A stretch of DNA of 64,000 nucleotides from Escherichia phage RB3: sequence record KM606994, one strand, 5' to 3'. The position numbers were made by a program, and so were the translations under genes. Position 1 is the stretch's first letter; each line of letters begins with the position of its first letter. Of this stretch, positions 31,192 through 38,890 are shown one piece after another. The notes beneath the pieces are model-generated. The model was not told the origin of the DNA and did not search any database. It saw only the letters and a program-made list of their open reading frames with translations.

Positions 31192-31694
31192 TTAAAAGTA
31201 TTTTTTAAAACTCATCATAACTTTATCATCAACATCATTATCAATCTGTGCAACAAGGTAAGATGACAGTTCTACTTCTTGTGGCGCGGATTGAACATTA
31301 TCAGAATTAAGATATTCACGAATCCAAGGATATGGATGTTTAACCGGAGCATCGGTAATTGGGCATGGAAGACCACACTGTTTCATACGAGATACAGTTA
31401 AGTAATCAATAAAGCTCCACATGCTATTTGTATTTAATCCAGGAACATCGCCATCTTTAAATAAATGAACTGCCCAATCTTTTTCTTGGCGGTTAACTTC
31501 CATGAAAATATCAACTGCTTCTTGTTCACACTCTTGAGCAATTTTAACCCATTCATCACCATCAGTACCGGATTGAAGTTGACGAATAATATATTGAGTG
31601 CCTTTAAGGTGAAGCTGTTCATCGCGTGCAATGAACTTCATAATCTTGGCATTACCTTCCATGATTTCCATGTTCTTATGGAAGTTAAAGGTAC
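31192..31694 (-). CDS. nrdB: ribonucleotide reductase small subunit NrdB, exon 2
   Basis: In-frame continuation ...TFNFHKNMEIMEGNAKI... of NrdB; 3' splice site placed after the intron-terminal G at 31695. Confidence 0.75.
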
Positions 31695-32785
31695 CGTTAT
31701 GTTCGATTGAGCTCGCTAATTCTCAACCCGTTCTCTTATGAACTGCTACATATTACTATGCAGACCAGACTATATCACAATCCCAGAGGGATTCTCCCCA
31801 TTTCGAGTCGCTTGACCCTACGTCCGAAGACTAGTCGTTGAACCTTGCTTTGCAATTGTCGCCGTGCCATCGTTTATATGTTGATGGTGATAAATCTTTC
31901 TTATCACAATATGGACAATTCAATTGAATTCTATTTGGATTTAATTTACATCTGTCATTATGTTTTAGATAAAATCCAGGACCTTTACCAATGTGACCGC
32001 AGAAATCACATGTGATTTCTTTTTGTGCAGGATGGGTCCCGTTCTTAACCATTTCTAATGTTTTTGCTGATGTTCTTTTCTTATGGTCTTCTGACAAGAA
32101 ATGATGTGAACCGTCATTTACCCGTTTTGATTGAGTTTCTGACTGCATTTTACCACCGCAAAATACATGAGTACCTTCTTTTATAGCTGCAATATTGCGT
32201 TCTTTAACTTTTGCAATATGCTCAGCTTGTTGAAAATTATGTATACCTAATGCAACTCTATTTAAATTAGATTTACGCTGTATTTCACCGTCTAAAAGAT
32301 GAAATGTACCATTTTCTATCTTAGATTTAATAGAGGCAATATTTTTAGCTCGTACTTCAGGGATATTAAAAATCTGGATTTCTCTAGATTTTGCGGCTTT
32401 AGAAGCTAATTCAGAAATTTCTTCAGGAGAATATTTCATTCTAAGCTTTATAGCATGACAAGCCTGGTAATCTTTTTGAGCTAAATGTATATCATAATGT
32501 TCCTGTATAGAAAGGCACATCAAATTATCTAAATCATTATTTTCACGGTTACCGTCTTTATGATGGATTTCGTCTGTTCTTCCATCAGAATCTTTAGGTA
32601 TAGGTCCGTTAGCATCTATCCAAATTTTTCTATAGTTCAATTGTGCATCCTCTTAAAAGTATAATCATATTTATATTATACTAATTAAAGGTGCAAGCAA
32701 AACCTTGGCTGCTAGTTTTCCTATAAAGGACTTTCCAGCAATTAAAGGAGTTTTCGATAAACGTTACCGTTTAAAGGCGCATTTT
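31695..32785 (-). mobile_element. group I self-splicing intron in nrdB (1091 nt) carrying I-TevIII
   Basis: Exon 1 ends in U, intron ends in G; joining exons creates codon UGU (Cys) giving ...FYVSFACTFNFHKNMEIMEGNAKI..., alignable with E. coli NrdB ...FYVSFACSFAF..ELMEGNAKI. Confidence 0.7.
31831..32640 (-). CDS. I-TevIII: HNH homing endonuclease I-TevIII, full length, inside the nrdB intron
   Basis: 269 aa; HNH motif HHKDGNRENNDLDNL...QEHYDIH and C-terminal Cys4 zinc finger; TTG start with GAGGA SD. Confidence 0.8.
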   Translation of the reverse strand: MNYRKIWIDANGPIPKDSDGRTDEIHHKDGNRENNDLDNLMCLSIQEHYDIHLAQKDYQACHAIKLRMKYSPEEISELASKAAKSREIQIFNIPEVRAKNIASIKSKIENGTFHLLDGEIQRKSNLNRVALGIHNFQQAEHIAKVKERNIAAIKEGTHVFCGGKMQSETQSKRVNDGSHHFLSEDHKKRTSAKTLEMVKNGTHPAQKEITCDFCGHIGKGPGFYLKHNDRCKLNPNRIQLNCPYCDKKDLSPSTYKRWHGDNCKARFND

Positions 32786-33461
32786 ACGCAAAAGATACAT
32801 AAAAACGAATAGCTTCTAAGGCATTAATAACGTGCAAACAGAGGTAAAGAGATTTCATTAAAGCACGTTTAGCTTCGGCTTCTTGCTTAATAGCTCGGTT
32901 TAAACGAAAGTCGGCATCAGGAGATTCTTTAGCTAGTTCTACAAATTCTTTAGCATTTTCCCATTCACGGGTTTTAATCAGAACATCATCATAATAGCGA
33001 CCGATAGATTCAGCGCGTTTCATAATAGCTTCATCTAATACAATCTCATCAAACACCTTTGACGGATCAGTATAAAGATTTCGCATGATATGTGTATATG
33101 AACGACTGTGAATAGTTTCACTAAAAGTCCATGTAGCAACCCATGTATCAAGACTTGGGTCTGAAATTAATGACATAAGTACAGCAGATGGCGCACGACC
33201 CTGAATGCTATCCAAAAGTGATTGATACTTCAGATTATTAGTAAAAATATTTTGCTGATACTGAGGAAGCTTATTAAACTGTGCAGCATCCATCATTAAG
33301 TTTACTTCTTCCGGGCGCCAGAAGAATGACAATTGCTTTTCGGTCAAATCTTCAAAAACTTTATGGCGTTGAATATCATAACGCGCAATACCAAGACCTG
33401 AACCAAAAAACATGGGTTCTTTTAAAACATCAACTGGATTTGTATTAAAAACTGTAGACAT
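32786..33461 (-). CDS. nrdB: ribonucleotide reductase small subunit NrdB, exon 1
   Basis: Starts at ATG (Met13 of track ORF) overlapping mobE stop as TAATG; ends ...AIRFYVSFA plus U of a split Cys codon. Confidence 0.75.
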
Positions 33462-34192
33462 TAATTTTTCCTCTTTAAAATTCTGCCGCGTTTCCAACCT
33501 GGCGGTATAATATCATCTTTACCTATAAGCGTGCATTCACTTCCATTATTAATCCATTTCTTACCGCGGATTCCTTTATAATCTCTTGGTTGTATTTTAT
33601 CAAACTTTGCATCAAGTTGATATGACCATCTAAATCCATAGGCATATTGAAATTTACCCTCAGCACAATATTTGATATTTGACCCGTTTCCATTAACTGA
33701 CCTGGACGCTGCCGCAATAGAGTGAAAGGTTTCTATGAAATCCCCATCTAATGAGAATTTATGTATTTCGATAGATGGGCATGCATACCTATTCACGTTT
33801 GATACATGTTGTTTAGTTTCGTTTTTATGATGCTTGCCTAACATTCCTCTAGGATGAGGATTATTTTTCCAATATTTCTTAAAGAAATCAGAATTAGCTT
33901 TAGCAAATAATTTTCTGTGCAAGCTATACAATCTGTTATTAATTCTATTACCAGCTTTATCTGTTGCCATTAACGTTAACGCAGAGGCAAGCCCAAAATG
34001 GCCTTCATTTATCTTACATAGTAATAGATGCGCTATAAAATGTTCTCTAGCTGTTAATTCAACTAAATTTTCTTTATCATCAGAACCTCCCATGCATTTA
34101 GGGACTATATGATGTGTCTCTTTATATTCAGATAAAGGTTCCCGAGCCTGAGCTCGGGAAATTAGGTCATTATAGATTTTTTGATAATTCAT
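33461..34192 (-). CDS. mobE: free-standing HNH homing endonuclease (MobE-like)
   Basis: 243 aa; HNH motif HHIVPKCMGGSDDKENLVELTAREHFIAH; between nrdA and nrdB. Confidence 0.7.
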   Translation of the reverse strand: MNYQKIYNDLISRAQAREPLSEYKETHHIVPKCMGGSDDKENLVELTAREHFIAHLLLCKINEGHFGLASALTLMATDKAGNRINNRLYSLHRKLFAKANSDFFKKYWKNNPHPRGMLGKHHKNETKQHVSNVNRYACPSIEIHKFSLDGDFIETFHSIAAASRSVNGNGSNIKYCAEGKFQYAYGFRWSYQLDAKFDKIQPRDYKGIRGKKWINNGSECTLIGKDDIIPPGWKRGRILKRKN

Positions 34193-37013: not shown

Positions 37014-37325
37014 TTATACCGCCATTTTTCCTTTCAAGACACCGTGGGACTGATAATCTTTGAGAACGAAATCTTTAGGCCTGAGTTTAAGAATGTATTC
37101 CAATTGTTCTTTAGTAGAAAGATAGCGGAATTTATAAGGCAATCCGCCTATTACCAGTTCACAAAGCTCTTTAGGTTCACGACGCAAAATTTCTTTACAT
37201 TGTTCTACGTGATTCATATAGATATGAGTATTACCGCCAGAAAATATCAAATCTCCAGGAATAAGATTACACATCTTAGCTACAATATGAACTAACGTAG
37301 CATATGATGCAATATTAAATGGTAG
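37014..37325 (-). CDS. td: thymidylate synthase, exon 2
   Basis: Continuation LPFNIASYATLVH... after the intron-terminal G at 37326; total 286 aa as in T4. Confidence 0.9.
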   Translation of the reverse strand, partial: LPFNIASYATLVHIVAKMCNLIPGDLIFSGGNTHIYMNHVEQCKEILRREPKELCELVIGGLPYKFRYLSTKEQLEYILKLRPKDFVLKDYQSHGVLKGKMAV

Positions 37326-38341
37326 CATTATGTTCAGATAAGGTCGTTAATCTTACCCCGGAATTATATCCAGCTGCATGTCACCATGCAGATCAGACTA
37401 TATCTCCAACTTGTTAAAGCAAGTTGTCTATCGTTTCGAGTCACTTGACCCTACTCCCCAAAGGGATAGTCGTTAGGCATTTATGTAGAACCAATTCCAT
37501 TTATCAGATTTTACACGATAAGTAACTAATCCAGACGAAATTTTAAAATGTCTAGCTGCATCTGCTGCACAATCAAAAATAACCCCATCACATGAAATCT
37601 TTTTAATATTACTAGGCTTTTTACCTTTCATCTTTTCTGATATTTTAGATTTAGTTATGTCTGAATGCTTATGATTAAAGAATGAATTATTTTCACCTGA
37701 ACGATTTCTGCATTTACTACAAGTATAAGCAGAAGTTTGTATGCGAACACCGCACTTACAAAACTTATGGGTTTCTGGATTCCAACGCCCGTTTTTACTT
37801 CCGGGTTTACTGTAAAGAGCTTTCCGACCATCAGGTCCAAGTTTAAGCATCTTAGCTTTAACAGTTTCAGAACGTTTCTTAATAATTTCTTCTTTTAATG
37901 GATGCGTAGAACATGTATCACCAAACGTTGCATCAGCAATATTGTATCCATTAATTTTAGAATTAAGCTCTTTAATCCAAAAATTTTCTCGTTCAATAAT
38001 CAAATCTTTCTCATATGGAATTTCTTCCAAAATAGAACATTCAAACACATTACCATGTTTGTTAAAAGACCTCTGAAGTTTTATAGAAGAATGGCATCCT
38101 TTTTCTAAATCTTTAAAATGCCTCTTCCATCTCTTTTCAAAATCTTTAGCACTTCCTACATATACTTTATTGTTTAAAGTATTTTTAATCTGATAAATTC
38201 CGCTTTTCATAAATACCTCTTTAAATATAGAAGTATTTATTAAAGGGCAGTCCTACAATTTAGCACGGGATTGTCTACTAGAGAGGTTCCCCGTTTAGAT
38301 AGATTACAAGTATAAGTCACCTTATACTCAGGCCTCAATTA
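37326..38341 (-). mobile_element. group I self-splicing intron in td (1016 nt) carrying I-TevI
   Basis: 5' end UAAUUGAGGCCUGAGUAUAAGGUGACUUAUACUUG recalled from the T4 td intron; intron ends ...UAAUG before exon 2; length 1016 nt as in T4. Confidence 0.85.
37473..38210 (-). CDS. I-TevI: GIY-YIG homing endonuclease I-TevI, inside the td intron
   Basis: 245 aa; MKSGIYQIKN...KVYVGSAKDFEKRWKRH. Confidence 0.9.
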   Translation of the reverse strand: MKSGIYQIKNTLNNKVYVGSAKDFEKRWKRHFKDLEKGCHSSIKLQRSFNKHGNVFECSILEEIPYEKDLIIERENFWIKELNSKINGYNIADATFGDTCSTHPLKEEIIKKRSETVKAKMLKLGPDGRKALYSKPGSKNGRWNPETHKFCKCGVRIQTSAYTCSKCRNRSGENNSFFNHKHSDITKSKISEKMKGKKPSNIKKISCDGVIFDCAADAARHFKISSGLVTYRVKSDKWNWFYINA

Positions 38342-38890
38342 ACCCAAGAAAACATCTACTGATCGTTGATACCACTGCAAATCCAAATAGCCATTACGCA
38401 CATTAAACTGATAGAACATATGACAAGGCGGTAATGCCATATATTTAAGTTCAGCTGGATTCCACGCAGAAACAATTTGTCGCCTATCATTCGGCAGTTT
38501 TTTAATACGATCAATAACTTCTACAATTTGGTCTACACCGCCAAAATCACGCCATTGTTTTCCATAAATTGGACCAAGTTCACCGCTATGGTATCCTAAA
38601 TCTTTTGCTTGATTTTCGTAATTTTCATCCCAGACTGTTTTGCCTTGGATTAACGAATCATGCTGAATTAATCGTAAATCATTTACGTTAGTACTTCCTG
38701 ATAAGAACCAAAGTAGCTCAGCAATGCAAGCTTTCCAAGCGAGCTTTTTAGTTGTTACTGCAGGAAAACCTTTACTTAAATCCCAGCGTAATTTAGTACC
38801 GAACAAAGCAATTGTTCCTGTGCCCGTTCGGTCATCGGTTTCATAGCCATTTTCAAAAATGTCTTTAATTAAATCTTGGTATTGTTTCAT
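38342..38890 (-). CDS. td: thymidylate synthase, exon 1
   Basis: 183 codons ending ...VDVFLG; active-site LPPCH; followed by intron start UAAUUGAGGCCUGAGUAUAAGGUG. Confidence 0.9.

Follow-up and report, generated by a model that had tools for sequence, protein, structure and literature searches.

The nrdB locus and its splice junction

Within the window, the whole 64,000-nt stretch of DNA analysed here, the nrdB gene lies on the minus strand and is interrupted at 32786|32785 and 31695|31694 by a 1091-nt insert. Exon 1 (32786..33461, −) was delimited by its reading frame and by the annotation of phage RB5; the frame opens with ATG at 33461, encodes the N-terminal 225 residues of the β subunit of class Ia ribonucleotide reductase, and reads up to …GCG T at 32786 (…AIRFYVSFA plus one codon base), after which it stops. 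The NrdB frame is picked up again at 31694 by exon 2 (31192..31694, −), which starts GU ACC UUU AAC… and runs to a stop codon at 31192-31194. Joining 32786 to 31694 restores a T|GT or UGU cysteine codon and yields an unbroken ORF of 1179 nt encoding 392 aa, with the in-silico spliced junction reading …UUUGCGU|GUACCUUU… (5' part GUACC). The excised segment (31695..32785, −) is 35% G+C, begins with AAAAUGCGCC and ends with …CAUAACG; the terminal base of the 5' exon is U, and that of the intron is G (G31695). In what follows, intron position i corresponds to window position 32786 − i.

The junction was compared with reference proteins and with intronless alleles. The spliced NrdB aligns with the R2 protein of E. 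coli (1piy_A and others) over residues 3-388 with E ≈ 1e-126, and the alignment is ungapped at the junction, where AIRFYVSFAC|TFNF stands against AIRFYVSFACSFAF (PDB sequence 1piy_A). Additionally, a 300-nt query spanning the in-silico spliced junction gives a single ungapped 300-nt match of 97.3% identity to intronless nrdB (RB32, RB33, FJ1, JK1 and others), and the same query splits into two pieces on intron-bearing phages. The nrdB gene of RB32 is also 1179 nt long, and a base-by-base comparison with it reveals no indel at the junction. The sole difference near the site is at exon position −2, where intron-bearing alleles have a G, which pairs in P1, and RB32 has an A; the codon specifies Ala in either case. 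The first-pass annotation, made from the letters of the window, had placed a break after …AIRFYVSFA with resumption past 1091 nt, and these coordinates are exact to the base; likewise, the splice sites that it set after U(32786) and G(31695), recreating a Cys codon, agree with the intronless alleles and with E. coli R2.

The insert folds as a group I intron

When the whole 64-kb window and 4 kb around the locus were searched against Rfam, no group I match was returned, because the 810-nt ORF in P6a splits the model. Searched alone, the 3' part of the insert (31746-31870) matches positions 120-253 of RF00028 'Group I catalytic intron' with 28.5 bits (E 8e-6). For the 5' part (32640-32802), the match covers positions 1-143 at 17.4 bits (E 0.015), and each half stays under the gathering score of 50. 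The natural ORF-less intron of PD112 (304 nt), with a core identical to that of the window, reaches 68.6 bits against the same model (E 2e-16), above the gathering score. For practical purposes this is a blind spot: the Rfam group I model misses ORF-bearing introns in scans of long sequences.

We drew the structure by hand as P1-P9.2 (85 pairs, 594 pair cells) over an alignment of seven variants, comprising the window, T4, S16, HY03 and SG1, each with its ORF removed in silico, and the ORF-less PD112 and DCP80. Standard pairing is found in 99.3% of the 594 cells, and nine pairs are changed on both sides, namely three of the five in P2, two in P9.2, and one each in P5, the loop hairpin, P7.2 and P9. 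In six slid controls, pairing falls to 38-43% and compensatory pairs to 0. The helices P3, P4, P6, P7 and P8 are invariant in this close set, where covariation is uninformative, and their assignment follows the Rfam alignment.

Specifically, P1 (32777..32789, −) pairs exon GCGU (32789-32786) with intron GCGC (32780-32777); it is invariant and 100% paired, and places a U32786•G32780 wobble at the 5' splice site. P2 is the hairpin AAACG-GUAA-CGUUU (32759..32772, −). The next segment (32708..32750, −), placed by the Rfam alignment and the fold, holds the 5' strand of P3 (32750-32745), P4/P5 (32740-32710), with a P5 closing pair that covaries UA/AU/GC, and the 5' strand of P6 (32709-32708). The 5' strand of P6a (32693..32700, −) is partnered in the fold by the 3' strand at 31853-31845, which together with the 3' strand of P6 (31843-31842) lies within the last ORF codons (31842..31853, −). 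The 3' half of the catalytic core (31768..31836, −), supported by the RF00028 match and the fold, contains the 5' strand of P7 (GACUA, 31836-31832), P7.1 (GUC-UUCG-GAC, 31831-31822), P7.2 (GGGUC-AAGC-GACUC, 31818-31805), the 3' strand of P3 (31799-31794), P8 (31793-31779) and the 3' strand of P7 (UAGUC, 31772-31768), the last preceded by J8/7; all are on the minus strand, and P3 and P7 form a pseudoknot. P9 (31763-31746), P9.1 (31743-31730) and P9.2 (31728-31705) fill the 3' end (31705..31763, −). Hairpins P7.1 and P7.2 between P7 and P3' are the hallmark of subgroup IA2. On the basis of the two Rfam halves, the PD112 score and the covariation, we identify the insert as a group I intron of IA2 type. 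The earlier call of a group I intron was right in this respect, and P1-P9 modelling, which had been suggested as a check on it, speaks in its favour.

A degenerate insertion that does not splice, leaving nrdB as a pseudogene or as two separate polypeptides, would fit the blank whole-window Rfam scan and the many GenBank records that list two separate 'NrdB' CDSs and a hypothetical protein for this locus. We give this reading a negligible probability, since the core helices are all intact and the fold covaries, the core is nearly identical to that of the T4 nrdB intron, for which self-splicing is established (PMC1865063, PMC2988022), and the exons joined in frame give a protein collinear with R2. 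The split NrdB entries are pipeline artefacts, which many automatic phage annotations still carry.

The intron-encoded protein I-TevIII

An uninterrupted ORF of 810 nt, encoding the 269-aa I-TevIII (31831..32640, −), sits in the loop of P6a. Its start codon is TTG (UUG), 8 nt after the Shine-Dalgarno sequence AAGAGG (32654-32649); an AUG abutting the Shine-Dalgarno sequence opens a three-codon frame only. The final nine codons are also part of the ribozyme, where they form P6a', P6' and P7 (5' strand); the P7 strand consists of GAC, with which the coding sequence ends, followed by UA from the stop codon.

The protein matches Pfam HNH_3 at residues 4-48 (E 1.9e-11, 43.9 bits, cutoff 24.8) and PHROG 12324 'intron-like DNA endonuclease' over its full length (1-269/269, E 1e-192), and PHROG 27406, the 97-aa T4 remnant, matches residues 173-269. 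It carries the HNH motif H26/H27/N39/H48 and two CX2CX12-13HX3C zinc fingers (C211-C231 and C242-C263) with the ligands C211, C214, C242 and C245, as expected from the 269-aa HNH/zinc-finger protein described at first pass. In published work on I-TevIII, the H26A, H27A, N39A and H48A substitutions abolish cleavage and leave binding, the zinc fingers with C211/C214 and C242/C245 are required for DNA binding as judged by alanine substitution, and the protein, of 30.8 kDa, dimerises through its C-terminal ~75 residues (PMC1865063). All eight mutation-sensitive residues are kept in the window, and the predicted mass equals the published value.

A search of PDB sequences with I-TevIII found no solved relative, and with Pfam (E ≤ 10) its central region gave neither NUMOD nor any other DNA-binding module. 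A FlgM match at residues 74-114 (26.2 bits, cutoff 25) was rejected as a compositional artefact of a Lys/Ser/Ala-rich segment. Between the HNH domain and the zinc fingers, the linker contains a tandem duplication of 45 aa that had not been reported before and might represent repeated DNA-contact modules.

Identity to the characterised RB3 element

The nrdB locus is 100% identical to that of phages RB5, RB6, RB7, RB9 and RB10. At either end of the window, 25 kb match RB5 (KM606995.1; 104395-129394 for the first and 143395-168394 for the last 25 kb) with 100% identity, and the same holds for RB7, both phages being classified as Tequatrovirus RB3; a window coordinate is the RB5 coordinate minus 104394, and the window makes up the final 64 kb of the RB5 genome. 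In the GenBank record of RB5, nrdB is a two-piece CDS (join 135586..137855, window 31192..33461) and I-TevIII is a 'homing endonuclease' (136225..137034, window 31831..32640), and the agreement of our nrdB boundaries and ORF with this annotation is far beyond chance.

Translation of positions 191-1000 of X59078, the 1991 RB3 record, gives a protein identical to that of the window ORF at 269/269 residues (reference I-TevIII CAA41802.1). The intron matches X59078 at 1090/1091 nt, with one extra C in the P8 stem of the window (CCC vs CC); CCC is common to all modern genomes, and the missing C of X59078 is probably an old sequencing compression. Eddy and Gold reportedly sequenced the RB3 nrdB intron and I-TevIII in 1991. 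Together, these data identify the feature, almost certainly, as the RB3-type nrdB group I intron with an intact I-TevIII gene, in a phage identical to RB5 and RB7. No finding of the analysis speaks against this identification. The element itself is known: its sequence dates from 1991, its biochemical characterisation from 2007, and GenBank carries its annotation; it is a textbook mobile group I intron that offers nothing new and leaves existing knowledge unchanged. The view that this phage has the undeleted form of wild relatives is thereby upheld, given the 100% identity to RB5/RB7 and the match to the I-TevIII of X59078.

Variants of the intron among related phages

The T4 intron (598 nt) equals the window intron minus 491 nt (about 32086..32576), a segment flanked by the short repeat GAAGA. 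Residues ~22-185 are thereby lost, the HNH motif among them, and the reading frame is shifted, so that the T4 ORF is truncated as had been stated; the 97-aa 'defective I-TevIII' annotated in T4 starts at an out-of-frame ATG. SG1 has an independent, larger ORF deletion. In PD112 and DCP80 the whole ORF is absent, with two ACAATTG repeats (intron 142-148 and 927-933) exactly delimiting the deletion. The intron is present in 127 phage records, about 83 of which hold at least 80% of the full-length form, and an nrdB exon query matched 736 phage records; by these counts, the intact form is common and most relatives are intronless.

The ORF-less forms of PD112 and DCP80 could conversely be ancestral instead of deletion derivatives, with the ORF a recent invader. 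The ORF-less introns score best against RF00028, a 7-nt direct repeat (ACAATTG) bounds the ORF, and an independent origin of introns and endonuclease genes is a general model (PMC2988022). However, the end of the ORF doubles as ribozyme helices; the ORF-less forms keep the ORF promoter, the Shine-Dalgarno hairpin and the last codons, which are sensible only as remnants; and a deletion between 7-nt repeats is a simpler event than invasion by an ORF. We therefore consider recent invasion improbable and PD112 and DCP80 to be deletion derivatives. The choice bears on the history of the element and not on its present function.

Expression control and a candidate operator

Upstream of the I-TevIII start, a hairpin that sequesters the ribosome-binding site (32645..32694, −) has a predicted stability of −14.3 kcal/mol (z = −4.4; 0/200 shuffles as stable). 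The loop holds TATAAATA (32675-32668), the T4 late-promoter consensus, and the Shine-Dalgarno sequence sits in the 3' strand; in SG1, an A-U pair of the inner stem is replaced by G-C, a compensatory change. Such a late promoter combined with an RBS-sequestering hairpin has been described for the intron ORFs of T4, including I-TevIII (PMC2988022). With 11 occurrences against an expected 9.4, TATAAATA shows no enrichment in the window, and since this count is not significant, the promoter role rests on published T4 primer-extension data and not on the sequence.

Next to this promoter, intron positions 84-103 (32702-32683), TTTTGCTTGCACCTTTAATT, are identical at 17/20 positions to the spliced homing site TTTTGCGT|GTACCTTTAACT, a level reached by 0/200 shuffles. 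The 20-mer overlaps the 5' strand of P6a and abuts the late promoter, and a 2010 review proposes a homing-site-like operator upstream of I-TevIII (PMC2988022). From this likeness, 32702-32683 may be a real I-TevIII operator through which the endonuclease would repress its own synthesis, a reading that we hold to be plausible, with the balance somewhat against it. If true, this one stretch would take part in ribozyme folding, in the occlusion of the promoter and in the binding of the endonuclease. The putative autorepression would resemble that of I-TevI, where autorepression has been shown.

A model of splicing and homing, and the place of MobE

In the model that follows, what was observed for the window is the intron boundaries, the fold, the ORF and its motifs, and the identity to a characterised element; self-splicing, cleavage chemistry, dimerisation, homing and late expression are taken from publications on T4 or on the RB3 element, which is identical. 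The nrdB transcript would run through the intron, and the RNA would fold into a group I ribozyme (P1-P9.2, with P7.1/P7.2, IA2). Two guanosine-initiated transesterifications, after U32786 and after G31695, would then excise the intron, and the joined exons would form the mRNA for the normal 392-aa R2 subunit. The ORF would occupy a dispensable loop, that of P6a, yet its last codons would contribute P6a' and P6' as well as the 5' side of P7. In long early transcripts the Shine-Dalgarno sequence of I-TevIII would be locked in the hairpin. Late transcripts are expected to begin at TATAAATA inside the hairpin, without its 5' arm, and would thus be translatable. I-TevIII would accordingly be made only late, with ribosomes kept off the intron core and splicing protected.

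The I-TevIII dimer, each subunit having an N-terminal HNH domain and a C-terminal domain of two zinc fingers, is predicted to bind intronless nrdB across the insertion site and to make a double-strand break 14/16 bp upstream with 2-nt 3' overhangs. Counted from 32786 with the published mapping (PMC1865063), the I-TevIII site in the exon would fall at 32799..32802 (no strand assigned). In the window, whose nrdB carries the intron, the recognition site is interrupted by it. Recombinational repair from an intron-bearing genome would then transfer the intron, together with flanking exon, to the allele that was cut. Homing of the RB3 intron was 4.3% per recipient in a plasmid-to-phage cross, against <0.1% for the T4 intron, and the purified RB3 I-TevIII was weak and labile (PMC1865063). 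The form had been presumed homing-competent, and homing is indeed demonstrated for the identical element; given the low activity and the 4.3% figure, the term means modest efficiency.

The intron could also be inherited mainly through the free-standing endonuclease MobE by trans-homing, as in T4, with I-TevIII a minor and decaying contributor. The mobE gene lies directly upstream of nrdB (33461..34192), the MobE of T4 acts in trans to mobilise the defunct nrdB intron (PMC2790892), the specific activity of I-TevIII is low (PMC1865063), and there are at least three natural, independent ORF deletions (T4, SG1 and PD112/DCP80). On the other side, the ORF of the window is intact and identical to the protein that raises homing >40-fold over the deleted T4 version (PMC1865063), the full-length ORF is kept in about 83 phage records, and the MobE of the window matches T4 MobE over the first ~57 aa only. 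We regard inheritance mainly through MobE as unlikely and favour homing by I-TevIII itself, although trans-homing by MobE and homing by I-TevIII are not mutually exclusive. As for the MobE of the window, a fusion of T4 mobE to nrdB.1 was considered and rejected, as its C-terminal two-thirds resembles neither of the two T4 proteins.

Comparison with known systems

The closest system is the RB3 nrdB intron with I-TevIII (X59078; PMC1865063), with which the window shares the host gene, the insertion site, an identical 269-aa protein and the phage species group. The T4 nrdB intron shares the insertion site, the ribozyme core, ~98% identity outside the deletion, the hairpin of promoter and Shine-Dalgarno sequence, and the region coding for the C-terminal zinc fingers; it differs by the 491 nt that are absent and by compensatory differences in P9. 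The T4 td/I-TevI and nrdD/I-TevII pairs resemble the window element in that each is a phage group IA2 intron in a gene of nucleotide metabolism, with an ORF looped from a peripheral helix, a late promoter, an RBS hairpin and cleavage distant from the insertion site (PMC2988022). However, I-TevI and I-TevII are GIY-YIG enzymes, I-TevI being a monomer, whereas I-TevIII belongs to the HNH enzymes and cleaves as a dimer (PMC1865063). I-HmuI, from the DNA polymerase intron of SPO1, is likewise an intron-encoded phage HNH enzyme with an extended, modular DNA-binding region (PMC1865063); unlike I-TevIII, it nicks a single strand as a monomer, and DNA that already carries the intron is cut as well. 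The window also contains the td/I-TevI pair, at 37014..38890.

Repeat architecture and a candidate operator of I-TevIII

Within the 269-aa HNH endonuclease I-TevIII, encoded by the ORF in the P6a loop of the nrdB intron, residues ~93–182 (window about 32364–32095) form a tandem duplication whose repeat period is 45 aa. This region separates the HNH domain from the zinc fingers, and it has a diagonal score of 77; the highest value among 300 shuffles is 45. Each 45-aa unit is comprised of two ~22-aa sub-repeats, in which a basic stretch is followed by G-T/S-H-x-F. The duplication matches no family in Pfam and goes unmentioned in the biochemical study of I-TevIII by Robbins et al. 2007 (PMC1865063). 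Separately, residues 74–114 match the Pfam family FlgM (anti-sigma-28) at 26.2 bits, barely over the cutoff of 25; the stretch is rich in Lys, Ser and Ala, and the FlgM assignment is in all likelihood a false positive caused by composition.

An intron 20-mer at 32702–32683 matches the spliced nrdB homing site, spanning the insertion point, at 17 of 20 positions, a level reached by none of 200 shuffles. The segment lies directly upstream of the late promoter and doubles as the 5' strand of P6a. An I-TevIII operator is mentioned in a 2010 review (PMC2988022), and this segment is probably that putative operator.

Direct repeats at the borders of the natural ORF-less deletion

Two direct copies of the 7-nt motif ACAATTG (32644–32638 and 31859–31853) flank the I-TevIII ORF, and the TTG start codon of the ORF is located within the first copy. 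In phages PD112 and DCP80 the nrdB intron has no ORF, equivalent to a deletion of 785 nt running precisely from one copy to the other. What remains is a mini-ORF of 10 codons (MHNCKARFND), which shares its reading frame with the ATG adjoining the Shine-Dalgarno sequence.

Allelic differences in P8 and at the 5' exon

In the P8 stem (31793–31779), the window and all modern genomes carry CCC, whereas the 1991 RB3 intron record X59078 carries CC. Since CC would cost the helix one pair, the shorter reading is probably an old gel-compression error in X59078 rather than a genuine polymorphism. At exon position −2 (window 32787), intron-bearing alleles carry G, while the intronless nrdB of RB32 carries A. 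The difference is synonymous, and in P1 the G forms a pair with the internal guide sequence; its presence in intron-bearing alleles is consistent with either co-conversion or selection for P1 stability.

Neighboring mobile elements

Between nrdA and nrdB, the minus strand encodes a 243-aa variant of the free-standing HNH endonuclease MobE (33461–34192). The gene overlaps both neighbors, its start with the nrdA stop and its stop with the nrdB start, and it alone occupies the interval that in T4 holds a 141-aa MobE together with nrdB.1. At their 5' ends, the two mobE genes share ~97% identity over ~175 nt that encode the HNH module (57 aa), but are wholly divergent beyond it. The variant in the window carries a NUMOD1 motif. 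From this comparison, the DNA-binding module looks to have been swapped relative to that of T4.

A second ORF-bearing group I intron of the window splits the thymidylate synthase gene td (37014–38890, minus strand) and bears the ORF of the 245-aa GIY-YIG endonuclease I-TevI (37473–38210), both annotated in the identical sequence of phage RB5. Like the nrdB intron, the td intron gave no match in a whole-window Rfam search at the gathering cutoff.

Related introns and their annotation in other phages

The 3' core of the nrdB intron, from P7' to P9.2 (31705–31772), shows 75–92% identity over 50–150 nt to sequences in unrelated phages, including Staphylococcus Twort-like, Pectobacterium, Vibrio, Klebsiella and Acinetobacter phages, Pseudoalteromonas pYD6-A, and others. 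These matches often fall inside polymerase, RNR or ATPase genes, without any annotation there, and probably mark many unannotated IA2 introns.

Many deposited T4-like genomes break the nrdB locus up into two distinct NrdB fragments and a "hypothetical protein", or even label it "major capsid protein" or "subunit alpha", rather than annotating a spliced nrdB and I-TevIII. Such mislabelling is a systematic pipeline error affecting intron-bearing phage genes.
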